Source: Takakia lepidozioides (Eukaryota; Plantae; Bryophyta). Taken from it: 64,000 nt of DNA. The stretch is from contig CM060733.1 of the NCBI GenBank assembly GCA_030704615.1, positions 31,000,001-31,064,000 on the forward strand, written 5' to 3'. The first letter of the stretch is position 1. Each line of letters opens with the position of its first letter. Positions 26,124 to 62,587 of the stretch are shown here, piece by piece. Under the pieces are notes generated by a model, which made no database searches, was not told the origin of the DNA, and was given only the letters and a program-made list of their open reading frames with translations. The translations under genes and the position numbers were made by a program.

Positions 26124-26479
26124 TGTCAAGTTAAATAAACACAGTGTGAAACTAACTAAAATAAATCTAGTTATTTGTATTTAACACTTGGATTTAGTTC
26201 AAGTGTTGAGTCAGGTGTAAAGTTTAGTTTGACACCTGAACCGTCTTATCTTCACGAGAGCGTCAGTCGTGCGGCTCATCTCTCTCGAGTTGAGCTTGCA
26301 CGACCGAGCTCCTTCACTGCTTAGAATCTGAGTGTGTTTATGAAGGGAGAATAGGACGTTGTGGGGTGGAGTCCCCATAGCTTGGGGTGCCCCTGGCTCG
26401 ACTCTTAGTTTTAATGAGTGATTGTGTTGTGTTTTGTGTTTCTTTGTTATCAGACATGTGAGGTTAGTTCTTTCAATCA
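26124..26479 (+). repeat. 5' terminal repeat A of copy 1 (TG...CA)
   Basis: Clear but diverged homolog of 45776-46130 and 57282-57634. Confidence 0.9.
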
Positions 26480-27924
26480 CTCGAGAGAGATGAGCTCTTA
26501 CCTGTGAGTGCAAGGTAGGAGTTGAGGGTTAGCACTTGTATGATTGCCTGTGTGTGAGTAGTGCTTAATTTGAGAAGTTTAAAAATAAAAATAAAAATAA
26601 AAATAAAATAAAAAAACATGCAGGTTTCGATCATCTCTGGTTTTTGGGTATATAGATGGTCATGGGAAGCATAGCAATCAGAGGAGGGCTCCTGCCTCTT
26701 GGTTTTGGATGGTGGAGACGAAAGGTTGCCAAAAGAGAGGTGAGGGCTGCAACTTCGCAATGAGATTGCCCGCAGAGAGGTGGCACGGTTCTCATCTTCT
26801 TGCACACAGCTCAAGCAATGAGCATAGAACGGCTCTGGCTCGAGTTCGTCTCACATCTCAGTCACAATGGTGGGACACTGATAAGGGGGTGCAATCTTCC
26901 TGTATGATGTGGAAATTGTTGTTGAAGGGGCTCGTGATTCAAGCCAGCATGCAGATGTTTTCTGGACTCAATCGTATCTCCAGCTGCTAAGATGGTTGAG
27001 AATTGTTGCCTGCCGTCGCTCCTCTTCTGCCGTCGTTCCACGAAGTCACCGTCCATCGTTGGCGTCAGTTGGGGGCCGCCTTCCAGTCGTCCTGTGGTGG
27101 AAGCGAGTGGAAGATGGGAGCTGTGATGGTATTCATAGTATTCATGCAGCTGCCTTGGTGGGGAAAGTGAATGCGAGACTGACAGCTCAACTGGGTACAA
27201 AGCAGCATTCAGACTCTACCGCGCGGGTGCGGAGCCCGTTGTTCTTGAAATTTCCACATATTCCTCTCTATTTCTTTCTGGTTGGCAATGGAACAGGAAA
27301 AATATGGGCAAACGATGCAGCTTGCATGTTGCAGAGAAGATCCTGCAGGATGGCCATAGGGGATTCATCTGCACTGATATGAACGCAAGCAGGGAGGGAG
27401 GAAGAGATCTTTCAGAGATTCCGAAGGAAGTGTCGACAAGGGGAGTGCCGACCTGCTCTCCTACATACCCGCACACTGCCTGCCGTCTCCTAATCGACAA
27501 CCATGCTTATGGCTTCTGCAAAGAATATCACAACTAGATGTGTCTTGATCAGCTGTGGAATGCACAATAAATCGGTGGTCATAAGTTTGGGCGGGAGCTT
27601 CTCAACATACTCAATTATGCCTTGAATTTGAGAAGTAGATTCTTCCGAAGTGTAGGCAGGTTTATGTTGGGAAACCTCAACTGAAACCACACTGTCACCT
27701 ACATAGGGCTGGAGGCTGGGTAGGCAAGCCTGGCCCCACCACCCTAACGCATTGGCGCTGGTGAAAAAACAGAAGGGTCTCTAGGATCCTGATAGTCCAG
27801 CGGGTGGCTGGTGATCCTCGGGTTTTGGAGGATTGAACCTCAAGGTTGTGTTTGTTGCAGGAGAGCATGAGAGTGGGAGACTGTGGACTTACCAGGTGAC
27901 ACTTGGTGTATGAGCGGGATATGA

Positions 27925-33873: not shown

Positions 33874-34272
33874 GGTTTCACAACCAGCCATGCCATTTTA
33901 TGGCGAACCACCACGAAGACCCTCGATTCCCGGTGGTGAGTCGCGGTGAGTCTTGGCCCGCTGACCACGGCCCCTATGGACCGTGATGAGTCCCAAGATT
34001 CCCCACGACTCCCACCACGAGGTTTCCGCCCCCATGGTGAGTCATATGCCACCCCCACTAAGTCCCACTAAGCTACCACCACCCCTTGTGGAGCCACCCC
34101 CACCGCAACCCGGTGTGCGGGGTTCCACCTAGTGAGCGCCTCCGCTTCCCTGAGTGCCTTGGGCACTCAAGGGTGCCTCAGCCCCCCATACCTATCGCTG
34201 CCGCTGCCCCCACCACAGGGGCAGCCCCTCATGTGTCCCGACCCCCTGCCCTCAAAGTAAAGGGCCGCGACA
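33874..34272 (-). repeat. Truncated 5' LTR of the chromovirus
   Basis: Matches 28843-29241; the remaining ~330 bp of LTR, the PBS and the gag 5' part are missing. Confidence 0.88.
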
Positions 34273-38202: not shown

Positions 38203-39258
38203 AACAACCGTGCATGCATTGACTGCCGTCTTGCTTTCTCTCTAGGCATTTGGGGGTCTGTGATCTGCTACACGTAAGTGTCTTTGAAGGCGATGATCAA
38301 AGGATCCGGTCACTTGCAGTTGCCGTCTCAAGGGCAGCATTGCAAGAATCACAATTAAGTAAGAAAGATGGTGGAAGAAGCTGCAAACTGCAAATGAGTG
38401 AAGTGGCAGGGCGATGCTCCATTCTTAACATGCTCCCCTTCCCGCCATGGTGATAGAGCCACACAAATGGACTCCCTTCCCGCCACGGTGCAATTTCAAG
38501 GCAACGGAACAGGATTGTTCGCCGAAACGTGATTTGGAGATCGCGGCCAAATCCGTGATGGAATTCGACCTTCCAATACATGATTTCCTCAATCCGTCTC
38601 GCTCTTCCGCTGAGGGTGGCATTGGGCGAACTACCCCCTGCTACAAACTTTTGATCGTAATGTGATTTTGAGAGACGAATCGCTGTAGCCGGAAATTGTG
38701 CAGACGATGACCGCCGATGAGTGGAGTTCACTCATTATGGCCTAAGACAAGTGGCGCAGGTTCTGGCCTTGTAGTTGGGTTGTTCACACTTCAATGCACA
38801 CATTTCATACACATTCAACCATATGCCCAAGATCACGACGTCCTGAATCGTGAAAATTGAAATTCCACGTACGTCCTCCGATTCGTCACACACACAAAAA
38901 CTGTAGAGACAGGTGGTTTTCCAAGATGTCGTTGTTTGAGTCGATTTTGGTCATTTCTCTCAGTGTCTTGTTGAAAAGATTCTAGTTATGATGGGAAGCA
39001 TCTTGATGGCTTTTAAATGGTTTGCTGTTGAGTGTAACTTTCCATCATGTTCTGGAATCTACCAGTTGGTATAAAATGTCAATTGTCTTCTCTGCCAAAG
39101 GATGTGCGGCTGAACCTTTCAAATTGAGATTGCAGGAGGAGGGAATTGACGGTAGTGAAATGGGAGTGGCAGAGCCAAATTGAGGAGTCTCTGCAAAGGA
39201 GAATCCGGCCCCCTGCAACGGCGTGCACAAACTGCATTGAAGAGGCTCCCCAACAAAA

Positions 39259-42200: not shown

Positions 42201-43277
42201 GTATGTTGGAATTACATATATATTGTCACAAGTCATTCCGGCCACTATGGGAGTGGGATCGTGTACTAACAGGGTGCTTCAGATGACTACAGAGGGTGTT
42301 TCGTAGTTGGTGTTGTTGCTTGCAAGTGATTATGAAGTAGGCTGCATCACTACAGTGTGCTTGAAATGACACAATCTGCATGTGGCATGCATGTACAGTA
42401 CGGTGTTGGTCCAGGGGACTGAGTTGCAGATTCTATTTGGTTTCTGCCAGAAAGTACGCAGCAGAGAAGGTCCGCCTGAAAACGGAACGGAGTGCATTTG
42501 CAAAAGCATGGCGGAGGGGCGGTTGTAGGCGCAGATCCCCGGTGGAGTACCCCACAACAATGGAGGAGCTGCAGCCCTTTACAGTGTGGGTCAGATCTGC
42601 AATTGCAGTGTACGCATCAGAGAACGAGGACCCAGATGAGGGCATGGTGAGTCTGTCATTCCCCCCAGGGCTGATTGCCACTTCGTACCGGTCAATGAAA
42701 GCATATGGCAATCATTATAGAGTGGACGATGCCAACACCAGCCTCCTGGTGACTTATGACAACGGAGTGGCATCATTTTTTGAACAAGAGAGTAGGAGCT
42801 ATGCACGAGATCGGAATCCAATTTCATGCCCTGTGCAATATGTAGGAGTCATCAAAGAGATCCTTAAACTAGACTATGGTCTTGTAAAACCAATTCTATT
42901 CCGTTGTTCTTGGGTAAAAGCCAACATGGTAGGAGAGAATGCCACCATGAAACGAGATGAGTACGGGTTCCTCCTTGCTGATTTCAGAAATGCTACCACC
43001 ACAAGATAAAGAGCCATTCATCTTCCCATCGCAAGTTGAGCAAGTTTTCTTTTCAGATGACACCCATGCGCCGGGATGGAAGGTGGTTCTTCACAAGGAC
43101 CCCCGGGCCAAACGAGTCGTGGCCGACGTCCATGATCTGGACCTAGGAGAGAATGGCGACCACGAGGGTCTGAGAGAACCACAAAATCTACCAGATACGG
43201 CCGAACCAGTCTCTTTGGAAGGAGCAGTTACCTTTAATGAGGAAGTCATTCCAGGGTTGATAATTATCGCAAGGTAA
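39259..43277 (+). pseudogene. CACTA Tnp2-family transposase (Transposase_21, DUF4218, DUF4216), several frameshifts
   Basis: MPCPCERC, YVKIHACPK..CPKCG..KVLRHFPLIPRL, DSLAWKHID..FAEDPRNVRLA, YNLPPW, DVYLQPLIEELQELW, ILWDLPYW, GMKSHDLH, FPPSFFDVMTHLLVHL, RWMYPMERY, EPFIFPSQVEQVFF. Confidence 0.95.
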
Positions 43278-45180
43278 ATTGCAGATATGGGCAGTGAAGG
43301 GGAAGATTCTTTGGATATAGATAGTGAGCCCAACTGAATCTCAGCGTCCATTAAGCTGGTAGCTCGTAGACGAGAGCTGTGCTAAGGACTCTTACTGTCC
43401 TTAGAACCCATTTTGTACAGTCCTGCAAGCGCGCAAGGGTGAGACAATTAATAGTATCGATAATGTCCCGGAATGTGGTCCGTACTGTCTTGTGAACAAA
43501 CCTATATTTACAGTATGATTGTAGTTCAGAACCAAAGGGCATATCCTTCAGCCTTGACGTCTTTGCGATCTTCTGCTGTGACGCCTTCTTCATAACTTGA
43601 GAAATGGAAAAGCAGCTACACCTCAAATTATTGCAAGGCCACTCAATGGCACTAAGAACGCTTCGAGTATGCTGTCAGAAAACTAGACGGGCAAAAACCC
43701 AATTCAGCAGCCTCACCTTGCGTGGATACTTGGGAATTGATACCAGAAGGGCATGCCCGTATGCGCGCTCGATCGTGCCTCCATCCAGCACATTCTGTAA
43801 ATGTTGAATGACCAAGACCCCAATGTTACACCCTTCTGAGAAGCCACTACACGCGCTCACAGTATACGAAGGCCTTGCCGTGTCAGGATTCGCATTCCCA
43901 TGTCCTGCCATGTCCGACAAAGCACTTGCATCCCTGTCTCTGCCAGGTGGAGGCAGCACGTATTAAAATATCTATTCCCCCAAGGCCACATTTGATTTAC
44001 CTCTTTTTGTGAAAGCCACGTCAGCAAATGTGCTGCCGAGTCATGGGTGCAATGAATGCGCAGTGGTTCATGGAGTCGTTGAGTCGACTACATATTCACT
44101 TTAATGAATAAATATCTTTATTCCATTAATCGAATTAGAAAAGGAAATTTGTAGTCGCATGTGCAGTAATTACAACCACTTGTAATTTTGGCTTTTTTCA
44201 AATTTTATGTATTTACGCAATTCGTAAAATAGCCCGGAATTCTGCTACGACTCCGGAGTCGTTGACACTTCTGTCCGCCGTCTGAAATGCCCCCGTGGGC
44301 CCACATTGTCTGTTTTGACTCTCCAGTAGTCCAGTTTACTACCAAGTGGTTCCCGGAGTGGTCGCGGACATGCAGTCGATTCGGAAAAGACACGAATGCT
44401 TCTAGTGACCTCCTACACCTTACCATCATGCAGAGCGAGGCACTTTGAGAGAAGTCTGGCAGTTGATAGCATAGATCAGGATTAGATCTTGTTTGGTCGG
44501 GCCTCTATTCTTCCCCTCCCTCTTTGTACTATTTTCATTACTTTGTACTTGTAGTTGCCAAAGCCTCTCTTGGTGGAGGCCAGTCAGTCCGGGGTTTTGG
44601 GCTGGGATATTCTGCAGGATCAGCACTGCAGATGGATTTGGTGTGGGGGTGGTTGATGTTTTGATTTCTTGTGTTTGGATCCCCCCAAACACCTGCATGC
44701 TTGAATGTGCGCCATGTTGGTTTTGTGTGGGTGCTTGCTTTCATAGGGATTAGGCCGGATTTGATCACCGGGCAATCCTAGAGTATGCTGTCGGTGGTGA
44801 GGCTAGAGTGATGACCAGCAAGACCACCAGTGTTTCTTCTATGGTGAGATTGGGTTGATGACCAGCCAACCATATAAGTACTTGCGGTGGATGCAGGTGC
44901 AGGTGCCCTGAGCCACTGGGATATGACCCTTAAATTGCAACAGGTGCCCATCCATGTCACTATTAGAATTAGTAATAGAGCCTTATAGTGTCACGTAGGG
45001 GAGGTGCACATTGTGAGTGTCATTACGGAGTTACCCAAGGGTTCTGAGGGGAGTACAGCTACAGGCAGTAACAATGAGAGTGGGTTCACAAGACGAGGGA
45101 TTTGGTTCAGACCACCTTCACCTCCACCCTCAACTACTGTAGAGTCTGACACAGACCCGAAGGCTTCATCAACAGGTGTG

Positions 45181-45775
45181 AACTGGATTGCCTGAGCTTC
45201 AGTAACCCCTTGGGTCACACTTATCAAGCGCCTCATACGAGTGTAAGCCTCTTGCAGGCTCTCACTGGATTTGCGCTGGAAGTCTTGCAAACTTCGCAGC
45301 TTCTCTGTCCGTACGCCTTGGTAGTTCCTCCGCAACTCGTGGAAGAACTCCACCACCGGGCTGAATCTAGGCACGTGTGTTGTAGTCGTGGCAGGAGGAA
45401 TAGTAGCACCTTCTGCAGAAGTACTGGCACTACTTGTTCCACTACTAGTGCTGGCAGTGGGAGGTATTGGTGCTGATGTCGCTACTGGTCACGTCGTGCC
45501 TCGAGTAATGGAGACGTAGTCAGGTGACCAATACATCCTCCACTCTTTAATCTCCGCTTCATGTCCTCACCTGAACTCGAGGTAATCGTCCATAGGCGGG
45601 CCTTCCAAATGCTGGAACAATCCCTTCCACGCCATGAATGGGGTGAACAGCTGTGGATTGCGCATCTGCTGCAAATCACATCAGCTGTCGAACTCCTGGA
45701 TAAAGTCATCCAGCTCGATTGTGCCCACAGCTCCAGAGTACCTGCGAGGCCCCTTGGTAGCTCCATACATCTCCT
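45181..45775 (-). pseudogene. Inverted gag segment of copy 1 (continues at 57720-57750)
   Basis: Reverse complement of copy 2 ~49830-50440 (RRNYQGVRTEKLRSLQDFQRK..AYTRMRRL). Confidence 0.92.
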
Positions 45776-46130
45776 TGTCAAGTTAAATAAGCACAGTGTG
45801 AAACTAGCTAGAATAAAGCTAGTTATTTGTATTTAACACTTGGATTTAGGTCAAGTGTTAAATCAGGTGTCAAGTTTAGTTTGACACCTGACCCGTCTTA
45901 TCTTCACGAGAGCGGCAGTCGCGCAGCTCATCTTTCTCGAGTTGAGCCTGCGCGACCGAGCTCCTTCATGCGTTTAGATTTGAGTGTGCTTATGATGGGA
46001 GTGTAGGTTGTTGTGGGGTGGAGTCCCCATAGCTTGGGGTGCCCCTGGCTCGACTTCTGTTTTAAAGAGTGATAGCGATGGATTCATGTTGTTTCTGGTG
46101 TGAGCAGTGTGTTTTCTAGTTTTCTTATCA
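45776..46130 (+). repeat. 5' terminal repeat A1 of copy 2
   Basis: 45776-46128 equals 57282-57634 except for one C/T; ends TTATCA. Confidence 0.95.
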
Positions 46131-46144
46131 CTCGAGAAAGATGA
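46130..46144 (+). promoter_or_regulatory. Putative self-priming PBS
   Basis: ACTCGAGAAAGATGA is the exact reverse complement of 45928-45942 inside A1. No tRNA-type TGG.. PBS is present. Confidence 0.8.
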
Positions 46145-46369
46145 CGCCGTATCTAGTTTTCTAGTGCTAAGCTAGATGTGACGTTTTTGTTTTTAAGCAC
46201 TATTATAATATAGCTTGGTCACGAGAGCCGGTAGTTAGACTGGCTATGTGTGCCTAGTGGAGCATAACAGGAAGGCAAGAACCACTCAAAGCGTCGTTGC
46301 AGCAGTTCTAACCTCCTGGGAATGTAGCGGGTCCAAGCTTTTTACAACAAGCAGGTGGGCTGGACCTGC

Positions 46370-47085
46370 TGTTTGGGTCTAAGAAGACTGGGTCGGCGGA
46401 TAGGCCTCTGTGGTTCCCAGGTGCAAAGGCCCCGTCTTGGGCTGGATGGATCTTTGGTTGGTGACTATGGTTTCGATCCACTGTCCCTGGGAAAATCTCC
46501 AGAGTATCTGCAGTTCGAGCTGGATTCACTGAACCAGAACTTGGCTAAGAACCCTGCTGGAGTCGTGATCGGAACCCGTCTTGATAAGAAGAAGGATATC
46601 AACCCCACTCCCTTCCGACCGTACAGTGAGGTGTTCGGCCTCCAAAGGTTCAAGGAATGCGAACTGATCCACGGTAAATGGGCAATGCTTGCCATTGTTG
46701 AGAGTTGTCTGTCGAGACGTTCACTGGCGTGACATGGCAAGATGCTGTAAAGGTGGAACTTGCTGATGGTCCCTCTTACTTCGGTCTCTCGTTGCCGTTC
46801 AGCATCTCTGCTCTTGTCTGGATTGAGACTCTTGTGGTAGGATACATTGAGTTCCAAAGGAATGCCGAGTTAGACCCAGAGAGGCGTCTGTATCCTGGTG
46901 GCAAGTACTTCGATCCCCTCGGACTGGCAGCTGACCCCGAGAAGAAAGAGGTTCTAAAACTCGCCGAAATTAAGCATGCAAGGCTGGCCATGGTTGCTGC
47001 TTTGGGTTTTGCTGTGCAAGCTGCTGCTACAGGCAAGGGTCCCTGGACAACTGGGCCACGCACCTGAGCGAATCCACTCTCACTT
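46370..47085 (+). pseudogene. LHCB4: Captured Lhcb4 (CP29) chlorophyll a/b-binding protein sequence, frameshifted
   Basis: [25 protein letters not shown], the CP29-specific [79 protein letters not shown]. An A23 run follows at 47116-47138. Confidence 0.93.
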
Positions 47086-47169
47086 GCCTGCTGAAAGCAC
47101 CCATCAGCTTTCTTGAAAAAAAAAAAAAAAAAAAAAAACTGTTGGCCTTGTCAGTCTTGTTCACCAAAA

Positions 47170-47502
47170 TCAGTGGGACGTGTAGGCATTACCAAGGCAC
47201 CAGTGAAGGTTGTTGACTTTACCAAGCGAAGTGTGGTAGAGGGCGAGAATGTTGTCATTTGCCACAACGTTATGTTTCCTTCGGCTCTCTACTACTGCCA
47301 TCATGTCACAGGAACCAAGGTGGTGCAGGCGTCGTTGGCAGCTGTAGATGGATCAATCATTCACGCAGTCGCCATATGTCATTTGGATACCAGTCTCTGG
47401 GCATCAGAGCATCCTGCCTTCACGGCTCTCAACATTATTCAGGGAGCCGAAGCATGCCATTGGTCAACTCAGAATGATCTCATCTGGGTGCCCTCCCACT
47501 GA
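47170..47502 (+). pseudogene. Captured BURP-domain C-terminal fragment
   Basis: Four CH motifs: VICHNVMFPSALYYCH..AVAICHLDTSLWASEHPAF..EACHW..DLIWVP. Confidence 0.9.
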
Positions 47503-48344
47503 TGAGGTCCGACCTCTGCTCTCGTTGCTACCGTTTCCAAGTAGTTCTGGGGATCGTAAGGTCAGCTCAGTGGAAAGTACTCTTGCCTATTTCCCTGCCA
47601 ATCGTCCTTTAACCTGCAACGGGCCTCTTGAATAGGCACATATATCAGCCATCAGCAACAATTTTGCATGCATACCTACATAGGTTTTCGGTGTTGATGC
47701 CCAGACACAAGGAATTTCAATTTGCTGTAAAGTGTTAGGCTGGTAGCAGCAGTCTTCTGCATGACTTCTCAAAATCTACCGCTGATGTAGAGCTGAAAGG
47801 CATGTGGAAATGCTTTGAGACTATGTCGGAGATCATCAATCTCGGATGCGCTTAAGCCCAGGCGCTCGAGCTCTGCCGTTGTCCCCAATTCGGTGATGCA
47901 GGGCAATCCGTTATCGCACGCCTGCTGCTCCAGGGTGTGATACCCCATCCATAACTGAGGTCGAGTCTTGGAGTTGAGAGTTCTTGGTGCCTGGAGAAGC
48001 CTGGAGGGGAACGGCCTCGGGAACCCATAGATAACCTGGGAACAGGTTGTAATGGCGAGAACGTTTTGGTGTTAAAAAAAAAAAAAAACCTTTTGATCTA
48101 ATTTAAATGATTTAGAGCCTAACTGTTCATAACTTTGTCAGATGGACTCCGTTTGACTCAGTTTTTGGGAGGATAGCTGCAGAAAGGGGAAATCTACCTA
48201 CCTAGATTCTGTTTCTGTTTTTGGGACTCTGCTAAAAATCTATGGAATTTTTAGAGTGTGAGTGTGCCATAAAAGATCCACAATCCTGTCTCTAGAACCT
48301 GTGCTGGTCTATATGAGAGACAAATCTGTGGATGTACTCCTTGC

Positions 48345-49095
48345 ATGGCTGGGGGAAATGAGGACGTAATTGAAGGGCAGGTCTCTTCTCTTAGCCATGC
48401 ACACAAGGGGACAGGATTTATGTTTCCCAAGGAATTCAGACTGATTTGAGTGGAGAACAGTTGGACGAGTTGATTGCATACTGGGAGTCAGGCATTAGCA
48501 GTAGACAACAGACTGCTGTAGTTGGCATTGAGGGCCTCAATATCGCCTTGGACAGTCAGAACTCTGTTGGAGCCAGCAGTTCTGCAGCTGTAGGTGAAAT
48601 ACCAAAGTGGGTGAAAGCTAGGCTTGGAACACAGCCAAAGACAGCCCCGGGGACCAAGGTGTTCAGCCACAAGGCCGTGGTGTACTAGAGCAGAGGAGCA
48701 GGAGGAGCTACACAAGTTTGTGCAATCAGACATGTTGCAGCCGGATACGCTCTGCAAGGGCAACCACGAGCGGGGGTTCATCAGCAATGACATGTTTGTT
48801 GTGCGTGAAGGAGATGCAGTCATTCGCAATGAGGACACCCCGCAACCGTCTCAAAGCTTTCGAGTTGAGAGACTATCAGACCCTACCTTTGTTTTCTTTA
48901 GTATTCAGTGAGCGGGAGATAGGGGAGTATTGCTTTGTCTCTACCTGGCAGAAAGAGGAGGAGGGTTGGTTAGAGCGAGCTACTGTAGCTTGGGACAAGG
49001 TTAGTGGCAGGTTTCTGGACATAGATATACCTCCTACACCTTACCATCATGCAGAGCGAGGCACTTTGAGAGAAGTCTGGCAGTTGATAGCATAG
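48345..49095 (+). pseudogene. ORF0 upstream of gag, unknown function (homolog in copy 1 at ~28465-28515, 34278-34909, 44411-44475)
   Basis: Both copies encode MAG.NEDVIEGQVSSLS..SGEQLDELIAYWESG..RNRLKAFELRD..WLERATVAWDKVSG..LREVWQLIA*; disruptions differ between the copies. Confidence 0.6.
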
Positions 49096-49619
49096 ATCAG
49101 GATTAGATCTTGCTTGGTCGGGCTTCTATTCTTCCCCTCCATCTCTGTACTATTTTTATTACCTTGTACTTGTAGTTGCCAAAGCCTCTCTTGGTGGAGG
49201 TCAGTCAGTCCGGGGTTTTGGGCTGGGCTATTCTGCAGGATCAGCATTGCAGCTGGATTTTGGTGTGGGGGTGTTGATGTTTTGATTTCTTGTGTTTGGA
49301 TCCCCCCAACACCTGCATGCTTGACTGTGCGCCATGTTGGTTTTGTGTGGGCGCTTGCTTTCATAGGGATTAGGCCGGATTTGATCACCGGTCAATCCTA
49401 GAGTATGCTGTCGGTGGTGAGGCTGGAGTGATGACCAGCAAGACCACCAGTGTTTCTTCTATGGTGAGGCTGGGTTGATGACCAGCCAACCATAGGAGTT
49501 CTTGCGGTGGATGCAGGTGCAGTGCCCTGAGCCATTGGGATATGACCCTTAAACTGCAACAGGTGCCCACCCGTGTCACTATTAGATTAGTACTAGAGCC
49601 TTATAGTGTCACGTGGAGG

Positions 49620-52550
49620 AGGTGCACATTGTGAGTGTCATTACGGAGTTACCCAAGGGTTTTGAGGGAGTACGGCTACAGGCAGTAACAGTGAGAGTGG
49701 GTTCACAAGACGAGGTATTCGGTTCACCCCACCTTCACCGCCACCCTCAATTACTATAGAGTCAGACACAGACTCGGAGGCTTCATCAAGGTGTGCACTT
49801 TCATTCACCATTGTTGTGGGACGACATGGAGGAGATGTATGGAGCTACCAAGGGGCCTCGTAGGTACTCTGGAGCTGTGGGCACAATCGAGTTGGATGAC
49901 TTTATCCAGGAGTTCGACAGCTGGTGTGATTTGCAGCAGATGCGCAATCCACAGCTATTCACCCCATTCATGGCGTGGAAGGGACTGTTCCAGCATTTGG
50001 AAGGCCCGCCTATGGACGATTACCACGAGTTCAGGCGAGGACATGAAGCAGAGATTGAGGAGTGGAGGATGTATTGGTCACCTGACTACGTCTCCATTAC
50101 TCGAGGCACGACGCGACCAGTAGCTGCATCAGTACCAGTAGCTCCCACTGCCAGCACTAGTAGTGGAGCAAGTAGTGCTGGTACTTCTGCAGGTGGTACC
50201 AGTTCAAAAGTGCTACTACTCCTCCTGCCACGACTACAACACATGTGCCTAGATTCAACCCGGTGGTGGAGTTCTTCCAGGAGTTGCGGAGGAACTACCA
50301 AGGTGTACGGACAGAGAAGCTGCGAAGTTTGCAAGACTTCCAGCGCAAACCCAGTGAGAGCCTGCGAGAGGCGTACACTCGTATGAGGCGCTTGATAAGT
50401 GTGACCCAAGGGGTTACTGAAGCTCAGGCAATCCAGTTTTGGTATGGAATTCTGGACAAGGAGCTCAAGAGAAGGGTGCGAGATGCAACCTTGTTACAAG
50501 CAGCCCAACCCACATTAGCAGATGTGTTTCTGCTGGCTGAGCGGATTGAGCTCAACATGGTGGAGGAGCGAGTTGTTACAATTGGATTTGGCAAGGACAT
50601 GCCTGCACGGGGCACAGCTGTCAGCCCACAGGCACAAGGGACTGCCCAACAGCGTGGTCAGGGGGGCAAGGTGCCCAGCCCAAGTTCCATGGAGCTTACA
50701 GGGGACCTCAGGTGCAGAGGCCCGTGCATCTTTTGCAGGCCAACAGCAACCAGGGGTGATATGTTGGACATGTGGAGGACCCCATGTCAAGAGAGATTGC
50801 CCAGAGAGTGGCAGAAGGCCGGCACAAGCACAGCCTGCACAGTTGCAGTGTGGGCATTGTGGCAAGTATGGGCATGGAGATGCCCAGTGTTATGACTTGC
50901 ATCCTGAGTTGCGCCCAGGCCAGTTCCAAGGGAACAATGGTGGCCGGGGGCGAGGTGGACCAGCCCAGAGAGGACGAGGTGGTCGGGCACGAGGTGCAGG
51001 CCAAGGGCAAGCTCAACATGGCCAAGGACGCGGAGGTCAGGGTGTTGATCAAGGCATGGCCAACCGGCTTCAGCAGCTAGAGCAGAGGCTCGCTGCCATG
51101 GCTATAGCTCAGGCGGTACCGGCTCCCAGGCGGGATGGTCCACCTCCTGCTCCCAAGGGAGGAGATATGGGAGGCATGGGATTTATGTGCGGAGCAGCAC
51201 TACCACTAGAGCAGGTGGAGTCTGCTGCAGCCGTGACTCGAGGAGCAGCACGAGTTCCTGAGCCACGAGGTGCAGAGGTGGAATTGGATCCACAGCGTGG
51301 GGAGGCAAGCCGTCAGGCGAGGCTTCCTCAGTCATTCACATTGGCGGAGACTGTGTCGACGCCATCCATGGCACCTAGTTCTCGCCCGACTGTTACCGAG
51401 GCGGAGGTTACTATGCCATTGGGGAGAGCTACACGTGCAGCATGACTCCTGCTGCCAAGGCTAGTGCGGCCGGTGTGTTATTGGGGGCAGCCACCTCTGT
51501 GTGTCAGGCCCCACTGTTCTCGGCAACAATGATTGCGACGCCGGGGGTGAGACCAGCTGCAGTGTTCAGACTAGCAGCAACACTCTGTGAGAGTGGGGAG
51601 GTCACTTCATCTTCTGCGGAGTTAGTGGAAGGTGTAGTGGCAGAGGGATCCTCGGATTTGAGGGTCAAGACTGCCACGGCTGCGCCATGGCAAGCTGCAG
51701 CTGCCAGGTTGACGGAGCTGCCAGCTAGGCCAGCCTTTGAGCGCGCCACGGTGACACCTGGAGTTGTCTTGTTAGACAACCAGGGAGGCATTTTCACTCT
51801 GAGTGGACCGGCAGGCAAGAAGTACCGGCCACTGCGGGTCTTGTTGGACTCGGGAGCTCAGCCACTGATGTTGGGCAGAGCTGCTATTGCAGGTTTGGGC
51901 CTCATGGAGGCGGATATGGAGCCTTGTCCTTTCCAGATACAGACATCTCTGGGAGGATCAGAGCAGGCTCGGGCATGACACGGCATCAGTTGGCCATTAG
52001 ACTGCAGCCGGATCATCCTAGAGATGGCTCAGTGATGCGAGCCAAGGCCATTGTGACAGACGCGGTCTCTTACGATGTCCTCGTTGGTGGGGCAGTGTTA
52101 TACCCCATGGGCTTCACCCTGGACTTTTGGGAGGAGTCAGCATCCTACAGGCCTGGATGGCAGTCAGGCGATGGTCGCCGTGCACAGCTCCCTGTGACAT
52201 TCATTGGGGGTATAGCGGCTGCCCAGCGGGGCAAGATGCCAACACTAGCCGCCTTTACAGCTGCAGTTAGTTGGCCTGGAGAGTTGCTGGAAGGCAATGC
52301 CCATGCAGAGGATGTGCCACCTCCAGCAGAGCAGGATGACATGCATGGTATGGCGGAGTTGCCTGCCATGGTTGCTCACACTCCATTGTGGGGTACGAGC
52401 AAGGATTTGCAGCAGGTTGCTGATCGACGGGTGCAACAAGCCTGGGTAGAGGCTTTTGTACCGTCAGAAGAGGAGGAGAGTGCGGGTATTGCACCAGGAC
52501 CACCTCAGTTGTCACCATTGGATACCACACCTATTGTGTGGCAGTATCCG
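49620..52550 (+). pseudogene. gag (two zinc knuckles) and aspartic protease of copy 2
   Basis: Capsid-like ELRRNY..FQRKPSESLREAYTRMRRL, CWTCGGPHVKRDC, CGHCGKYGHGDAQC, protease VLLDSGAQ (~51840) and YDVLVG. The start is approximate; several 1-nt frameshifts. Confidence 0.88.
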
Positions 52551-52559
52551 GATGAAGGC

Positions 52560-53525
52560 ATTTGCCTTCTGGACTTGTTTGGCGGGATCAGCACTGGATT
52601 GGCTGCTGTGCTACAGGCAGGTGTGCGGGTAAGGTGTTACCTGTATGTGGAGAGGGATGAGACTGCACGACGCGTCTCACTGCGCCATGTTGCTCAGTTG
52701 GTACAACAGTACCCTGCTTTGTTGCCAGTGTCTGCAGTTCGTGGATACCAACAAGCCTTGCCAGCAGACATTTCGTTGTTGGGGGCGCCGGATTTGGAGC
52801 AGGTTGGCTCCATTGATCTGGTAGTGGCAGGTTGGCCCTGCCAAGGGCATTCATCAGCCGGGCATGGCAATGGATTGCGAGACTCGAGGACGGGTCTGTT
52901 TTGGGAGATGGTGCGGATTTTGCGCCACTTGCAGCTTCATCAAGCTGTATCGCCAGCATACATCTTGGAGAATGTGCCACTGATGGGCGATTCTCGGGCC
53001 AGGGTGATGGCCAGTGTGCATCAAGTCCGGTCGTGGCTTGGGTCAGCAGTGTTGCTGGATGCAGCTGCAGTGGGGTCACGGGCTCATCGTCCACGGCTTT
53101 GGTGGACTAACTTGATGCCACCTGCACTACTCAAGCGTGCATTTGATGGGGTGCAGCGGCCAGCACACCTCACCGTGGATGGCATTTTGGACACAGGGAG
53201 GCAGTCTCAACGTGTGAGACACGATGACCGTTCGCCTTTGGCAGTGGTCAACAGGGTGGGTCAACCACGAGCAGCATTACCTACACTGCTCAGCTTCCCA
53301 GGATCCCATGCTTTTCGGGATGGTGGACCTGGCCTCCTGTGGGATGCTCAGTTGCAGCAGTTAGTGGAGCCTAATGCCGACGAGCGAGAGCGGGCTATGG
53401 GGTTTTCCACTGGGACCACGGCGGTGCCTTCTCTTTCTGAGGCATCACGTCGTCAGGTGTTGGGGCAAGCAATGGATCTCAATTGCTTGACCTGGATTAT
53501 CAGCTTGGCTATGGCTGAGCAACGT
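52560..53525 (+). CDS. C5 cytosine DNA methyltransferase domain (DNMT3-like) inside the retrotransposon polyprotein
   Basis: Uninterrupted frame with motif I LLDLFGGISTG, II YVERD, IV DLVVAGWPCQ, GLFWEMVRIL, VI YILENV, VIII SRAHRPRLWWTNL, IX ERERAMGF and X RRQVLGQAMD. Confidence 0.95.
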
Positions 53526-53804
53526 AGAGTGCGGAGTGCACTCCCTTCATGGTCTCTCTGCCTACCGAGACGGTACAGGCAGCGAGTGGGGGGAGCCGGT
53601 GAGGACCACGGGGTGTAGACATCCATGGCACACGTGGGAGGTGCTCGAGGTTCAGAGGGAGTTGGCAGCCAAGGCAGCTGTGATGGATGAGGTTGGGGAT
53701 TCTTCTCGGGATGAGGAGGTTCTCAATGATGAGATGATGGGGCAGGATGAGGCCTTGTCATGACTGAGCAGGAAGGGAGTACTGCTCAAGAGGTTGCAGC
53801 ATAG

Positions 53805-56800
53805 CAACCACGGGACGCGTCCTCTACCTCTAAGCCCACTGGACTTAAGGTTGCAGTTACGGAGGACAATTGGGAGCCTGACATTGGACCCATTGTCACC
53901 GGAGGAGAGAGACGACGTATACGGCGGTTCCTGAGGGCTTACAGAATTGTTTTGCCTTCAGTTTGAAGGACTTGGGAGCACTGAAGGGTCAAGAGATTGA
54001 ATTGAGTTGGCCACTGACACGCCAATCTTTCGGAGACCCTATAGATACAGTGACATGGAGAGGTCCTTGATTCAGATGAGAACTCAGGATCTCTGGGAGG
54101 CAGGTTTGGTGGAGCTCTCTGGTGGAGAGTATGCTTCAGCCACAGTGATGCCAGCCAAGAAGGATGTCTATGGCAATTGGACGGAGAGACGTATGTGCGG
54201 TGATTACCGGCCTGTAAATCGTCAGACCAAGTCCGATAGGTATGCCATGCCGACACCAGAGGAGATCTTTGATGCCATTGGGCATTCCAAGGTCTTTAGC
54301 ACGTTGGATTTACGATCCGGATATCACCAGTTGCCGATCAAGGAGGCGGATAAGCAAAAGACGGCATTCTGGGGGATCAATGAGCACGGGAAGGATTGCC
54401 TATACCAGTGGCGGTTCTTACCATTTGGGCTTAAAAACGCTCCCGCTGAGTTTCAAAGAGTCATGGACAGGATTCTAGCAGGGGTGGAGTTTGCTCGGTG
54501 CTACATAGATGACATCATCATCTTTAGTGCTACGGTGGAGGAGCATGAGAGACACCTTCAGGGGGTATTTGAGCGCTTGAGGGCGCACGGATTGAAGTTA
54601 CATCCGGGAAAGTGCAAGTTTTTCCACAACCAGATTGAGTATCTGGGTCACATGATATATCCTGGAGGATTGGGGGTACAGCAGACTAAGGTAGAGTCCA
54701 TTGCACAGGTTCCACGCCCCACGGATGTGAGCCGAGTTCGAGCTTTCATGGGGTTAGCAAACTATTACAGACGGTTTGTTAAGGGATTTAGTGCCATTGC
54801 AAAGGCTCTAACCAAGCTGACCAAGGTGGACCAGGAGTGGCAGTGGGAAGATGAGCAAGAACAAGCTTTTCAAGAGCTCAAGGCGAGGTTGACCTCGGCG
54901 CCCATCTTGAGACGACCTATCAGGGGGCGTCCTTTTCAGCTGCATACAGATTGGAGCATGCTGGGGCTTGGAGCGGTGCTCACACAGGTGGATGATGAGG
55001 GAAGAGAGTTCGTAGTGGCTTATGCTAGCCGCTCGAACAATGCTGCAGAGTCTAAGTATAGCTCATATGAGGGAGAATGCTTAGCTGCAGTGTGGGCCGT
55101 GGCACACTTCAGGTGCTATCTATACGGCAATCTCTTCACCCTTGTCACGGATCACCAACCACTCAAGTGGTTGATGGAGTCAGACAAGCTTACGGGGAAG
55201 CTTGCACGGTGGGCACTCATCCTTCAAGAGTATGACTTTCAGGTGGTGCATCGACCGGGTTTGGTCAATCGCAATGCAGATGGGTTGAGTCGCAATCCAT
55301 GCACGAGCCAACAGGATGACACTGGAGCTCGGTGGCATGGTGAGACGGACGAGGAGATGGTGCCCGGATGGCATGCATCTGCATTTCTGTGTATCTTGGC
55401 AGCGGAAGGCCAGGTTGGACCTGCAACAGGGATGACTGTAGATCAAGTGTCTGAGGACCCTGAGGCCAGCAATGAGCAAGGTGGCGCCAAAGATATACAT
55501 GAGGATTCAGTTGTGTTGGACTACCTCCGCACTGGAGACACGGCAGCCACTGTGACTGCCAAGGAGAGGGATCGGATCCTACAACGAGCCAAGAGGTTCA
55601 AGTGGGAGGGACACACCTGCTCCGAGTGTGGGAGGATGGTCGAGTGAGGATTGTGCCTCACCCAACACAGCGGGCACGGTTAGTGCGCCATGCCCATGAG
55701 GAGTTGGGGCATTTTGGGGTGCGACGCACTCATAGTCTACTGCAGGGGCAGTATTGGTGGCGTGGTATGCACACAGAGGTGCAACAATTTGTGGCTAGGT
55801 GCATGGTGTGTGACAGGGTGCGTGCTTCATTCAACGCCCCTACTCCACAATTGCACCATCTTCCGATCATGGGATTGGGCTACAGGTGGAGTCTTGACTT
55901 CGCAGGGCCATTGCCACTGACCATGCGCCACAACAAGTACGTGTTGGTGATGGTGGAGCACTTCTCCAAGTGGATTGAATTGGTTCCATTGCCTGATAAG
56001 GCTAGTGAGGGAGCTGCGTATGCATTCTTGGATTGTGTGCTTAGCCGATTCGGTGCTCCAGCTGAGGTACTCACGGACCAAGGGAGAGAGTTTTTGGGGG
56101 AGTTTCAGGCGTTGTGTGACAAGGCCTTGATAGACCACCGCACCACTTCTCGGGATCATCCTGAGGCCGATGGCTTGGCAGAAAGAGTTGTTCAGACAGT
56201 AAAGAGGGGTTTGCGCAAGTATGGCTTGCAGAAGGGACACCTAGGAGATTGGGACCTTCAGTTACCCTGGTTAGCCATGGGCTACAGGTTCAGCAAGCAA
56301 GCATCACTTGCCTCCTTCTCACCATACTTTCTTCTCTTTGGCCGAGAGCCGGATTTGCCTACATCCATTCGCAGAGAAGCTGCTACAGTTCTTAACCTTG
56401 ACGATCCGGACGTGTGGGCACGTGCATGTGAGCAGCGTGCAGAGTTGTTCAAGAGAGTCATGCCCATGGCTTTCGAGAACCTTGCCATTGCACAACACCG
56501 TGATACGTTGAGGTATGCTACCATACGTGGTGGGGGCTATCGTCCTGGGGTTTGGAGATTCAACCCTGGTGACTATGTCTATCTGCAGCAAACTGCTCCT
56601 ACGACCCTGGATGTGACTGCAGGACGTGTTATTTTGAGGATTCGAGAGGTCTTGCCCTCAGGCGTCTTGGTCTTGGAGGGTCGGGATGGCATAACTTGGA
56701 AGGACCATGTGCGTAATTGTGCGCCATGTCACCTTCCAAATGTCGATGGCAGGATTGACCCAAACCTGGCAGTGGTATCTGCAGGTTTGAGGTGCATGTT

Positions 56801-56935
56801 GTGTGGGTCTGCTAAAGGGGCAGCCACCATGCTGGTGTGTGATCGATGCTCTAGAGGTTGGCATATGGGATGCTTGACTCCACTCTTGAGATGGTTCCGG
56901 ATGGGGATTGGTTATGTCCACATTGCATTGGATAG
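53805..56935 (+). pseudogene. RT-RNase H-integrase-PHD of copy 2
   Basis: [81 protein letters not shown], then C4HC3 PHD. Frameshifts at ~53945-54000, ~55610 and ~56885. Confidence 0.95.
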
Positions 56936-57179
56936 TGGGAGTGGATACAACCATGGAAGGCTAACAAGAAACGCAAGGCCCAGCTACAGGAGACCTTGAA
57001 TACACGAAGTCCTGGCTCAAGTTCACAGATTGCAAGACGACGACTAACGATGGGGCTACTCTTGTACCCGGCCTCTTGGTCTATAGAGTTTGAGTACGAT
57101 AGGGACAGTGATAGAGGACTTAGTACGGCTATGGCTATTACGTCTTGTAGCTATCTGGAGGTAGAAGGACCTATCCACC

Positions 57180-57194
57180 AGCTAGGGGGGCAAT
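57180..57194 (+). promoter_or_regulatory. Polypurine tract
   Basis: AGCTAGGGGGGCAAT immediately before TGTGGT of repeat X1. Confidence 0.75.
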
Positions 57195-57719
57195 TGTGGT
57201 AGACTACTTTATTGTGCATATATGTGTGGTGTGGTTTGGACAGCGATGTAGTTGTGTAGCGATACGTATGCGCACGACAGCTGTCAAGTTAAATAAGCAC
57301 AGTGTGAAACTAGCTAGAATAAAGCTAGTTATTTGTATTTAACACTTGGATTTAGGTCAAGTGTTAAATCAGGTGTCAAGTTTAGTTTGACACCTGACCC
57401 GTCTTATCTTCACGAGAGCGGCAGTCGCGCAGCTCATCTTTCTCGAGTTGAGCTTGCGCGACCGAGCTCCTTCATGCGTTTAGATTTGAGTGTGCTTATG
57501 ATGGGAGTGTAGGTTGTTGTGGGGTGGAGTCCCCATAGCTTGGGGTGCCCCTGGCTCGACTTCTGTTTTAAAGAGTGATAGCGATGGATTCATGTTGTTT
57601 CTGGTGTGAGCAGTGTGTTTTCTAGTTTTCTTATTGTGGTAGACTACTTTATTGTGCATATATGTGTGGTGTGGTTTGGACAGCGATGTAGTTGTGTTGC
57701 AATACGTATGCGCACAACA
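57195..57719 (+). repeat. 3' terminal structure X1 (57195-57279) - GC - A2 (57282-57634) - X2 (57635-57719)
   Basis: X1 and X2 are 85-bp direct repeats (3 mismatches); A2 equals A1; the X1/A2 junction reads CAGCTG. Confidence 0.93.
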
Positions 57720-57751
57720 TCCTCCATGTCGTCCCACAATAATGGCGAAGA

Positions 57752-60700
57752 AGACAGTTGTAGTGTAGGCATTGTGGCAAGTATGGGCATGGAGATGCCC
57801 AGTGTTATGACTTGCACCCTGAGTTGCGGCAAGGCCAGTTCCAAGGGAACAATGGTGGCCGAGGGCGAGGTAGAGCACCTCAAAGAGGATGAGGTGGTCA
57901 GGCACAAGGTGTAGGACGAGGGCAAGCACAGTATGGCCAAGGACGTGGAGGTTAGGGCGTTGACCAAGGCATGGCTAACCGGCTTCAGCAACTAGAGCAA
58001 ATGATTGCTGCCATGGCCACAGCTCAGGTGGTACCAGCTCCAAGACCTGAGGGTCCACCTCATGTTCCTCCTCAGCAGCGTCATCCTGACGGAGGAGACA
58101 TGGGAGGCATGGGATTTATATGTGGGGCAGCACTACCACTAGTGCAGGTGGAGTCTGCTGCAGCCGTCACTCGAGGAGCAACACGAGTTCATGAGCCACG
58201 AGGTGCAGAGGTGGAGTTAGATTCACAGCATGGGGAGGCAAGCTGTCAGACTAGGTTGCCTCAATCATTCATCTTGGGGGAGACAGTGTCGACGACATCC
58301 ATGGCACCTAGTTTTCGCCCGACAGATACAGAGGCCGTTATTGTGCCATTGGGGAGAGCTACACGTGCAGCACTGACACATGTTGCCAAGGCTAGTGCAG
58401 CCAGTGTGTTGTTGGGGGCAGCCACCTCTCTATGTCAAGCCCCACTGTTCTCGACAACCATGATCGTGACGCCGGGGGTAAGACCAGCTGCAGTGTTCAG
58501 ACTAGCAGCAACACTCTGCGAGAGTGGGGAGGTCACTTCATCTTCTGGAGAGTTGGTGGAAGGTGTAGTGGTAGAGGAATCCTCGGATTTGAGGGTCAAG
58601 ACTGCCATGGCTGCGCCATGGCAAGCTGAGCTGCCAGGTTGACGGAGCTGCCAGCTAGGCCAGCCTTTGAGCGCGCCATGGTGACACCTGGAGTTGTTTT
58701 GTTAGACAACCAGGATGTCATTTTCTCTTTGAGTGGACCCGCAGGCAAGAGGTACCGGCCACTGCGGGTCTTGTTGGACTCGGGAGCTAAGCCACTGATG
58801 TTGGACAGAGCTGCTATTGCAGGTTTGGGCCTCATGGAGGCGGATATGGAGCCTCGTCCTTTCCAGATACAGACATCTCTGGGAGGATCAGAGTAGGCTC
58901 GGGGCATGACACAGCGTGAGTTGGTTATTAGACTACAGCCGGATCATCCTATAGATGGCTCAGTGATGCGAGCCAAGGCCATCGTGACAGATGCAATATC
59001 TTACGATGTCCTCGTTGGTGGGGCAGTGTTATATCCCATGGGCTTCACCCTGGATTTTTAGGAGGAGTCAGCATCCTACAGGCATGGATGGCAGTCAGGG
59101 GATGGTTGTCGTGTACAGCTCCCTATGACATTCATTGGGGATGCTGCTGCTGCCCAACGGGGCAAGATGCCAACACTAGCCGCCTTTACAGCTACAGTTA
59201 GTTGGCCTGGAGAGTTGCTGGAGGGCAATGCCCATGCAGAGGATGTGCCACCTCCAGCAGAGCAGGATGACATGCATGGTACGGCGGAGTTGTCTGCCAT
59301 GGTTGCTCACACTCCATTGTGGGGTATGAGCAAGAATTTGCAGCAGGCTGCTGATAGACGGGTGCAACAAGCCTGGGTAGAGGCCTTCGTATCGTCAGGA
59401 GAGGAGGAGAATGCAGTGATTGCACCAGGACCACCTCAGTTGTCGCCATTGGACACCACACCTCTTGCGTAGCAGTGCCCACATGAAGGCATATGCCTTC
59501 TGGACTTGTTTGGCGGGATCAGCACTGGATTGGCTGCAGTGCTGTAGGCAAGTGTACGAGTTCGACGTTATCTGTATGTGGAGAGGGATGAGACTGCACG
59601 ACGCGTCTCACTGCGCCATGTTGCTCAGTTGGTGCAGCAGTACCTGATTTGTTGCTTGTGTCTGCAGTTCGTGGATACCAACAAGCATTGCCAGCAGACA
59701 TCTCTTTGCTGGGGGCGCATGATTTGGAGCGGGTTGACTCTATTCACTTGGTAGTGGCAGGTTGGCCTTGCCAAGGGCATTCATCAGCCGGGCATGACAA
59801 TGGGTTACAAGACTCAAGGTCATGCCTGTTTTGGGAGATGTTGAGGGTCCTACGCTATTTACAGCTTCAGCAGACAGACCCTCCGGCATATATCTTGGAG
59901 AATGTGCCATTGATGGGTGATTCTAGGGCCAAGGTGATGGCCAGTGTGCATCAAGTGCGGTCTTCGCTTGGATTAGCAGTGTTGCTGGACGCAGCTGCAG
60001 TGGGGTCACGGGCTCATCACCCACGACTATGGTGGACCAACTTGATGCCACCTGCACTGCTCAAGTGTGCATTTGATGGGGTGCAGCGGCCACCACAGCT
60101 GACGGTGGATAGCATTTTGGACATAGGGAGACAGTCTCAGCGTGTGAGACACGATGACCGGTCACCTTTGGCAGTGGTCAATAAGGTGGGTCACCCACGA
60201 GCCACATTGCCTACACTGCTCAGCTTTCCAGGATCCCATGCTTTTCGGGATGGTGGACCTGGCCTCTTGTGGGATAGCCAGTTGCAGCAATTAGTAGAGT
60301 CCAATGCTGACGAGGGCGAGCGGGCGATGGGTTTTACCACTGGTACCACGGCGGTGCCATCTCTTTTTGAGGCATCGCATCGTCAGGTGTTGGGGCAAGC
60401 AATGGATCTCAATTGCTTGACCTGGATTATTAGCTTGGCTATGGCTGAGCAGCGCAGAGTACGGAGTACACTTCCATTGATGGTCTCCCTGCCTACCGAG
60501 ACGGTACAGGCAGCGAGTGGGGGCGAACAGGTGAGGACCACGAGGTGCAGGCCGCATCCATGGCACACGTGGGAGGTGCTCGAGGTTCAGAAGGAGTTGG
60601 CAGCCAAGGCGGCGGTGATGGATGAGGTTGGGGATTTTTTTCGGGTTGAGGAGGTCCTCAAGGATGGGATGATGGGCCAGAATGAGACATTGTCACTGAC

Positions 60701-61539: not shown

Positions 61540-62161
61540 TGTCGCGCGGCTTTTACTCACCCATCCCTTCGCTATCCGAGGCGGAAACTCCAAGATAGAA
61601 GAGTTGGAAATCTCTAAGTACTCAGCCCGCGCAGAACAATCAGTCATGACCTACAGCTAGTGTATCATGGGGGTGTTTCCTATTTGTTTCCTTTTCCGCA
61701 TTCATCTTAGCTACCTTACCATTGATAATTAAGTATCAGTTTGCTTCATCAATTTATCGGTTTCCTTAACTCCTCCATTCAATCCACAGCTTCACTCAGA
61801 TCTCTCTACACAGTGTGATTGTATCGTATAAATATCAGATTATGATTTATCAGGTATCAGGCCGAAGCCATTATGTCTCTATTCTTCTTTCCTATATCAC
61901 TATAGCTTTGCATATAACAAGCATCTAATAATCCTCTTTTCTCCTTCATCGTGCTCTCCGATCTCCGCTCCCGCCTGACTCCGAAGTCCTCCCCCGAATA
62001 ATGATCCCTTTCTTCATTCCCCGTTTTCCCTTTATCCTTCTGTCCGCGTTCTAACCGTTTCCCTCTCTAACCGTCGTATGTGAACTAACATGTTCCCTCA
62101 CAGGTGTTGTTCCCCACAGTCGTTCCCTGTCCTACTCTTCGTTCCCTATTATCGTGACAGC

Positions 62162-62425
62162 TGTGTCAAGCGGTGACTGGCTGTGTTTGGCTGTGTGGGC
62201 TGTGTCTGCTGTGACGACTGTGACGGGCTGTGTGGGCTGTGTGGGCTGTGACGACTGTGACGGGCTGTGTGGGCTGTGACGGCTGTGTGGACTGTGACGG
62301 GCTGTGTGGGCTGTGACGGGCTGTGTGGGCTGTGACGGCTGTGTGGGCTGTGTGGGCTGTGACGACTGTGATGACTGTGACGGGCTGTGTGGGCTGTGAC
62401 GGCTGTGACTGCTGTGTGGGCTATG
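62162..62425. repeat. Short-period tandem repeat (GGCTGTGTG / GCTGTGACG units)
   Basis: Directly visible. Confidence 0.9.
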
Positions 62426-62587
62426 TAACCCCCCCTCTACAGTGCGCTGCTGTCACCCCTAAGGTTCCTGTTTGTCTCAGTCTGTGCAAAAATTAAGGGT
62501 ACCCTACAGATCCCGTATAAGTGTCTAAGTCCCCTACAGTCCTCTAACATTACCCCTTCCCCCCTCAAAAAGCCGTGTCCTCACGGT

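Follow-up and report, generated by a model that had tools for sequence, protein, structure and literature searches.

A retrotransposon of the bryophyte Takakia lepidozioides carries its direct repeats in a permuted order, A ... X-NN-A-X, which sequence comparison with relatives identifies as a regular feature of its family and not as a one-off. This order would be produced if the two ends of the cDNA were joined and the joined molecule were then opened by its integrase at an internal CA-NN-TG, a route to which we assign a probability of about 0.55. The analysis covered the window, a stretch of 64,000 nucleotides of T. lepidozioides DNA, together with related loci in metagenome contigs and with Logan contigs.

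Structure and classification of the inserted element

Self-BLAST revealed two copies of the same retrotransposon family in the window, with copy 2 (45776-57719) inserted into the gag of copy 1, the older of the two. Self-BLAST and a repeat search of the window showed that the repeats of copy 2 are permuted: A lies at the 5' end and the series X1-GC-A2-X2 at the 3' end, all on the + strand. The two A repeats (A1, 45776-46128; A2, 57282-57634) are 353 bp long and differ by 1 mismatch. The two X repeats (X1, 57193-57279; X2, 57633-57719) measure 87 bp including 2 shared junction bases and differ by 3 mismatches. There was no X upstream of A1, and two identical long terminal repeats at the insertion ends were not found in copy 2. 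The X1-A2 joint reads ..GCACGACA-GC-TGTCAAG.., a 17-nt pattern that occurs once in the window compared to 0.03 expected by chance, and one 88-nt Logan contig from another sample (run X5) bridged X1-GC-A2. Logan contig depths are sums over subfamilies and were left out as copy numbers. The 5' end of copy 1 (26124..26495, + strand) consists of an A-like repeat, 90% identical to A, followed by the primer binding site. From 26124 copy 1 likewise opens with TGTCAAG, in a flank that differs from that of copy 2 and has no X; it resumes at 57720.

The earlier note had described split repeats in an element delimited by a target site duplication, and the repeats, the ends and the duplication were all borne out, the duplication by a paralogous empty site. 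The termini of copy 2, TGTCAAG...CACAACA, have TCCT on either side (45772..45775 and 57720..57723, + strand). As copy 1, the host of the insertion, is paralogous to copy 2, the gag of copy 2 itself served as the empty site. The left flank (45700-45775) is the reverse complement of copy 2 gag 49905..49830 and the right flank (57720-57752) matches copy 2 gag 49833..49800. Both matches overlap by exactly 4 bases, TCCT, which are present once in the paralogous empty site. The 4-bp duplication of copy 2 is therefore real, and the boundaries of copy 2 are those given in the earlier note.

The copy 1 equivalent of copy 2 gag 49800-50438 is inverted (window 45181-45775 and 57720-57752), and the equivalent of 50439-50838 is missing. 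A position of copy 2 on the exact inversion breakpoint, which would have cast doubt on the duplication, was considered and rejected because the inverted stretch continues across the insertion site. Copy 2 was inserted within the inverted gag stretch of copy 1, not at its edge, and the inversion in copy 1 is an event separate from the insertion of copy 2. Further features were noted in the window. Direct repeats of 403 bp at 28840-29242 and 33871-34273, 98% identical and nested in copy 1, look like another LTR element. A 9.5-kb insert at 34910-44407 also interrupts copy 1, and a minisatellite of 9-10-bp GGCTGTGTG/GACTGTGAC units lies at 62154-62426.

The coding regions of copy 2 all lie on the + strand. 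The gag, which has two zinc knuckles, is split among several frames within 49760..50900 (Retrotrans_gag, E 7e-4, below the curated cut-off). It is followed by a protease-like end with a DNMT3-like C5 cytosine methyltransferase at 51741..53618 (PF00145, E 5e-13), whose best solved relatives are DNMT3A (E 1e-8). A reverse transcriptase with RNase H (RVT_1, RT_RNaseH) occupies 54001..55647, and a DDE integrase with zinc-binding domain, rve core and C-terminal PHD finger occupies 55503..56999. Along 54001-56999 the order is RVT_1, RT_RNaseH, Integrase_H2C2, rve, which is the Ty3/gypsy order. The two strands of 46129-57190 hold 38 ORFs of at least 90 aa, and a search of these gave no tyrosine recombinase, in agreement with the earlier note, which had named a DDE integrase and a 4-bp duplication. 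The best matches of the integrase were 80-87% identical, liverwort proteins among them, and further named relatives came from Sphagnum, Marchantia and Klebsormidium nitens. The K. nitens integrase-PHD proteins were 52-55% identical to the window integrase in pairwise comparison.

The leader of copy 2 (46328-47502) carries captured pieces of host genes, and BLAST gave no match to copy 1 there. One piece, at 46328-47067, encodes a chlorophyll a/b-binding protein in two frames (PF00504, E 9e-21) and is followed by an A-run. The other, at 47095-47502, encodes the C-terminal part of a BURP domain (E 1.5e-27).

Judged by its sequence, copy 2 is a Ty3/gypsy retrotransposon of the KnitGypsy-Dnmt3 kind. 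For KnitGypsy-Dnmt3 of K. nitens, the legend of Fig. 4c gives a DIRS repeat structure with Gypsy domains (de Mendoza et al. 2018, PMC5890265). In that description a DNMT3-like methylase lies within the Gypsy pol, as it does in the window element (PMC5890265). In copy 2 the methylase likewise accompanies a Gypsy pol and the repeats are arranged in the DIRS-like manner; the methylase was also present in moss loci. The host of KnitGypsy-Dnmt3 is an alga, whereas the window element lives in a bryophyte and has its closest integrase matches at 80-87%, in a comparison of integrase proteins. The view in the earlier note that split repeats are untypical of gypsy elements needs qualification, since the legend had already noted them for KnitGypsy-Dnmt3 (PMC5890265). 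The layout of a DNMT-carrying Gypsy element is thus already in print, as one unexplained legend sentence, and that legend and the accompanying text give no duplication, primer site, PPT or mechanism (PMC5890265). The name KnitGypsy had no match in three supplements of de Mendoza et al. 2018. Our literature searches returned no other paper with this name and no mechanism for the permuted layout in DNMT-carrying Gypsy elements; among the matches listed for split repeats, the elements treated were tyrosine-recombinase or unrelated ones.

Repeat layout among relatives in metagenome contigs

Relatives were fetched from metagenome contigs by their integrase. This gave 42 loci with integrases 53-84% identical to that of the window and with the same protease-DNMT, reverse transcriptase and integrase frames. 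The stretch ahead of the PPT and X were present in 19 of the 42. Loci with the same flanks were merged as duplicates (L006 with L007, L009 with L010, L013 with L018, L021 with L025, and L015 with L019), and two were dropped from the count of 3' ends, L024 because its contig ends inside X and L030 because it is rearranged. The resulting independent 3' ends numbered 13, window included.

The full series PPT-X-NN-A-X, followed by unrelated flank, was seen at five of the 13 3' ends (L007, L010, L013, L015 and copy 2 of the window). One more, L032, read X-GC-A before it was cut by the contig end, and one, L029, was aberrant. At the remaining six (L001, L008, L014, L016, L020 and L021), unrelated flank followed directly on PPT-X. 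The full layout was therefore present in 4 independent insertions outside the window, among them L010, which is full length and has a TCTC duplication. A TGTG duplication is probable in L019. Together with TCCT in copy 2, these cases combine TG..CA ends with 4-bp duplications in the manner of Ty3/gypsy elements.

All 5' ends that were complete (6/6: L010, L019, L032, L039 and copies 1 and 2 of the window) read flank, A and primer site, with X absent; the truncated L004, identical with L005, was excluded from this count. The earlier note had argued from the start of copy 1 at TGTCAAG without X that the arrangement was unlikely to be an accident, and the five complete and one contig-cut 3' ends with X-NN-A(-X) strengthen that argument. 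The note had also named the finding that would count against it, an ordinary arrangement with X-A or A-X at both ends. We looked for this arrangement in the metagenome loci, and no copy had it among the 6 5' ends and 13 3' ends.

In Logan contigs of run X1, X was followed by heterogeneous flanks in 9 cases (agreement 0.45), and one of these contigs was 1875 nt long. Logan contigs also had GCTGTCAAG after X, the G-run upstream of X, and A with a primer site behind it.

Copies in which flank follows PPT-X are probably dead derivatives. L015 and L019 are one locus, as their right flanks are 95-99% identical over >8 kb, and L019 lacks exactly NN-A-X compared to L015. The short form thus arises at least once by X1/X2 deletion. 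The six short loci in the count may also be direct dead products. Between L015 and L019 the flanks were 99% identical over 7.5 kb and the element interior only 91%, with divergence falling with distance from the element.

Two further arrangements were seen. L030 (3224-3668) is rearranged: the sequence ahead of the PPT, together with X, is present there in reverse complement ~30 bp from a primer-site region, and no A separates the two. In L033 (11965-12064 and 13510-13601), and likewise in L034, ATAGGGGG is followed by a sequence resembling X and by TTGTCATGA.., and a sequence resembling X recurs 1.5 kb farther along. What remains of these two more distant loci (integrase 56% identical), which are too decayed to score, is suggestive of the same layout, so that the layout may be older than the moss and liverwort subfamilies.

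Predicted reverse-transcription signals, and the junctions

The signals for reverse transcription were located relative to the repeats. A G-run, CTAGGGGGG (57182..57190, + strand), ends 2 nt upstream of X1 and is kept in all relatives as the polypurine tract; with ~50 conserved bases ahead of it, it precedes X1 in every copy. At the other end, A1 runs to the C at 46129, the end of U5 (45776..46129), and directly 3' of it lies the predicted self-priming primer binding site ACTCGAGAAAGATGA (46130..46144, + strand). This site is the exact 15-nt complement of 45928..45942 (+ strand), at about position 151 of A, which we predict to be the self-primer at the transcript start. In copy 1 the exact complement extends over 17 nt (26274-26290 with 26479-26495) and includes a compensated change relative to copy 2. 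Moss copies have a different pair that is again complementary, GTTCTTTGAGT with ACTCAAAGAAC. The minimum-energy fold of the predicted leader pairs primer with primer site (z -5.1 in copy 2, and -5.8), although the chosen start of the fold favours this pairing.

The primer binding site is accordingly predicted to be a Tf1-like self-priming site. Similar to Tf1/sushi elements and plant Tcn1 as described in PMC6317226, it lies directly after U5 and is complementary to the element's own, here predicted, transcript start. Tf1/sushi elements and Tcn1 have ordinary paired LTRs and a chromodomain in that description (PMC6317226), whereas the window family has a PHD finger and permuted repeats. A CA at 46129-46130 was considered as a canonical LTR end and rejected, because its A belongs to the primer site; the right end that reverse transcription would define reads ..TTATC, without a CA.

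A primer site after U5 and a PPT before U3 are what Ty3/gypsy elements have, and both are conserved here, with their function predicted; they bound X-NN-A and not the insertion ends. Since the PPT adjoins X1 and the primer site adjoins A1, reverse transcription by the standard scheme should make an LTR of the form X-NN-A. X would then be the outer part of U3, and A its inner part with R and U5, where R, the transcript start and a poly(A) site that would lie within A2 and not in X2 are predicted. The earlier note had placed the real LTR between PPT and primer site as X-GC-A, and the conserved PPT and the predicted self-priming site suit this proposal well. Its statement that the PPT adjoins X1 while the 5' end lacks X also stands, given the G-run at 57182-57190 and an X at 0/6 5' ends.

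The ends of the insertions differ from these ends of the predicted LTR. The insertion ends are conserved as TGTCATG on the left (TGTCAAG in the window, at the start of A1) and ..CACGACA on the right, and form a short inverted repeat. In copy 2 the right end is formed by CACAACA of X2 (57635..57719 without the shared bases, + strand), and the corresponding sequence at the end of X1 is ..GCACGACA. The change from CACGACA to CACAACA at the X2 end of the window copy recurs in L007 and L010. Inside the RT-defined LTR the two integrase end sequences lie head to tail as CA-NN-TG, with the internal end-to-end boundary of copy 2 at the dinucleotide GC (57280..57281, + strand). In relatives NN was GC, AT or AC (AC in L007). 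As NN varies, the palindrome CAGCTG, which the earlier note had made a feature of the cut site, is not required, and this part of its proposal is not supported. The RT-defined ends themselves, the start of X and the end of U5, are not inverted repeats and have no CA.

The second joint, A2|X2, reads ..CTTAT|TGTGG.. in copy 2. In it the end of U5 is followed by the sequence that lies behind the G-run, as in a two-LTR junction, and it varied by 1-4 nt between copies. L010 has a filler of 17 nt at this joint, and the window copy has lost 3 nt relative to other copies. Other copies in the same organism read CTTATC+ATTGTGG (variant CTTATCATTGTGG) in 5, 1, 2 and 1 contigs of runs X1, X4, X2 and X5, respectively. 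Across the joint of the window copy itself, no Logan contig of four runs (contigs ~60-120 nt) had 31 letters on both sides. We infer that the U5 end and the U3 start are joined afresh at every insertion, which produces A2|X2. The earlier identification of A|X with joined cDNA ends thus gains from the composition of the joint, its small variation and the filler in one copy.

X1 and X2 had no fixed class differences, and copy-specific variants were common to both, which fits a copying of both from one template in each cycle. In a nearest-neighbour test of X1 against X2, the partner was nearest in L007 and L015 and not in L010, L013 and L018; the test is only partly informative because the copies are old and star-like.

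Proposed joining of cDNA ends and internal cleavage

To account for these features we propose the following course as the simplest. Reverse transcription would make a two-LTR cDNA with LTRs of the form X-NN-A, and its ends, the U5 end and the U3 start, would join as A|X to give a two-LTR circle. The integrase would then cut both strands 3' of CA at the CA-NN-TG of the LTR copy that adjoins the primer site, so that CA ends of the usual recessed form arise, with 5' overhangs of 2 nt. Inserted with a 4-bp stagger, these ends would give A...X-NN-A-X and a 4-bp target duplication. We take the insertion ends to derive from cleavage at CA-NN-TG within the LTR copy beside the primer site. A...X-NN-A-X alone would retain both an A with the promoter at its 5' end and a further R at its 3' end, and it is thus the one product that could be copied again.

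Several observations bear against this proposal. A circle cut at the other CA-NN-TG would yield A-X-NN-A...X, and this form was seen at 0/6 5' ends. If it were as common as the observed form, such a result would have a chance of ~0.02-0.12, so that either the route is directional or A-X-NN-A...X collapses fast by A/A recombination. Apart from L019, copies with flank after PPT-X could arise directly if both LTRs of a linear cDNA were cut, and joining into a circle would then be a minority path. In the window copy, X1 and X2 have diverged more than A1 and A2 (3/87 compared to 1/353; Fisher p 0.026). A same-cycle origin does not predict this, though two of the three X changes are at CpG.

Cleavage of LTR-LTR junctions by a DDE integrase has counterparts in retroviruses. 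HIV-1 integrase reportedly cleaves a palindromic LTR-LTR junction. For foamy virus, cleavage by integrase is described at the palindrome where the two LTRs of a 2-LTR circle meet, with 3'-processed ends as the product (PMC1180852). Such head-to-tail CA..TG junctions, from which DDE integrases can make processed ends (PMC1180852), resemble the CA-NN-TG of the window element, where the cleavage is our inference. In retroviruses the junction comes from joined LTR ends and its cleavage restores an ordinary provirus, whereas in the window family the LTR itself contains the junction, and the cDNA ends, once joined, would remain within the insertion.

The aberrant locus L029 is relevant to more than one route. 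In its 3' part (3242-3890), X-GC-A leads into a primer-site copy and then into A(1-176) in reverse complement, which ends at an inverted left end, ..GGTCATGACA; beyond this lies unrelated flank. It looks like an integrated snap-back product, in which the plus-strand primer-site tail folded on the self-primer sequence; so read, L029 shows an integrase end used far from the cDNA terminus. This would also suit a course in which cutting comes first: the integrase cuts CA-NN-TG of the left LTR on linear cDNA and inserts, and host end-joining ligates the U5 end and the U3 start afterwards, with no free circle. The final anatomy, the duplication and the variable A|X joint would be the same. Cutting first would leave a chromosome break to repair at every insertion, however, and the preference for the left-LTR boundary is as unexplained by it as by joining into a circle; we regard it as unlikely. 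The extra synthesis in L029, at the right end of the plus strand, also recalls a possible error of reverse transcription. If the plus strand switched template end to end, leaving the U5 end for the beginning of X, and copied at least X, the integrase could cut internal ends of a linear molecule, the TG of the left-LTR A and the CA of the appended X. Such an extension would explain why only A...X-NN-A-X and never A-X-NN-A...X was found. It would have to proceed on a homology between U5 end and X start of one C at most, and we found no precedent for such a jump in Ty3/gypsy reverse transcriptases. The 17-nt filler of L010 and the 3-nt loss of the window copy look like end-joining, and on balance a jump of this kind appears improbable to us.

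The repeats alone would allow a cycle of the DIRS/PAT/Ngaro type, with an RNA from A1 to X2, circle closure templated by the internal X1-A2 junction, and site-specific recombination of the circle. A repeat structure of the DIRS kind was also remarked on for KnitGypsy-Dnmt3 (PMC5890265). The order A1-internal-B1-A2-B2 constitutes split direct repeats (PMC8969392), which copy 2 has, and as in PAT-like DIRS, Ngaro and VIPER elements the internal junction of copy 2 juxtaposes both element ends (PMC8969392). These elements are described as having a tyrosine recombinase and no duplication (PMC8969392), whereas the window element combines a DDE integrase with TG..CA ends and 4-bp duplications, and the search of its 38 ORFs gave no tyrosine recombinase. 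Its PPT and primer site are placed where an LTR element needs them, and X1 and X2 do not form separate lineages. A DIRS-like cycle is very unlikely on these grounds. TOC1 of Chlamydomonas likewise has split LTR parts, and a cut inside the LTR of a circle was reportedly proposed for it. It is non-coding and is now placed with DIRS/PAT-like elements. That the window copy is a one-off rearrangement or an assembly error draws on the missing bridge across its A2|X2 joint. The same layout in 4 independent insertions from other samples and in L032 refutes this for the family, and with the TCCT duplication validated we give it next to no weight.

We therefore return to joined cDNA ends opened by a cut inside the LTR as our preferred reading. 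We consider the odds even that a lineage of DDE-integrase LTR retrotransposons, from charophyte alga to bryophytes, made the LTR-LTR junction route obligatory. In such a lineage, the integrase ends would lie head to tail in the LTR, so that the cDNA would have to be joined, or its ends rejoined, and opened internally to give copies that can replicate again. As far as our literature searches show, the validated duplications, the self-priming site with covariation, A|X as a varying U5|U3 joint, the X1/X2 deletion derivative and the snap-back copy are new.

Two-LTR junction forms of retroviruses and LTR retrotransposons are usually seen as dead-end by-products, and their use by integrase has been argued for decades. 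On our reading, genomic copies of this family would themselves record the joining of U5 end and U3 start and an integration by ends inside the LTR, and would do so repeatedly, across separate insertions and more than one host, which makes the use of two-LTR junctions by integrase directly testable in a natural family. A DNMT3-like methylase and a PHD finger are further features of the family, one copy of which took up pieces of host genes. Annotation is affected as well, since an LTR finder built to expect equal repeats at both termini will place the ends of the family wrongly or call it DIRS-like. If the proposed route is true, the family would follow, with a DDE integrase, a counterpart of the cycle that tyrosine-recombinase retrotransposons with split direct repeats follow.
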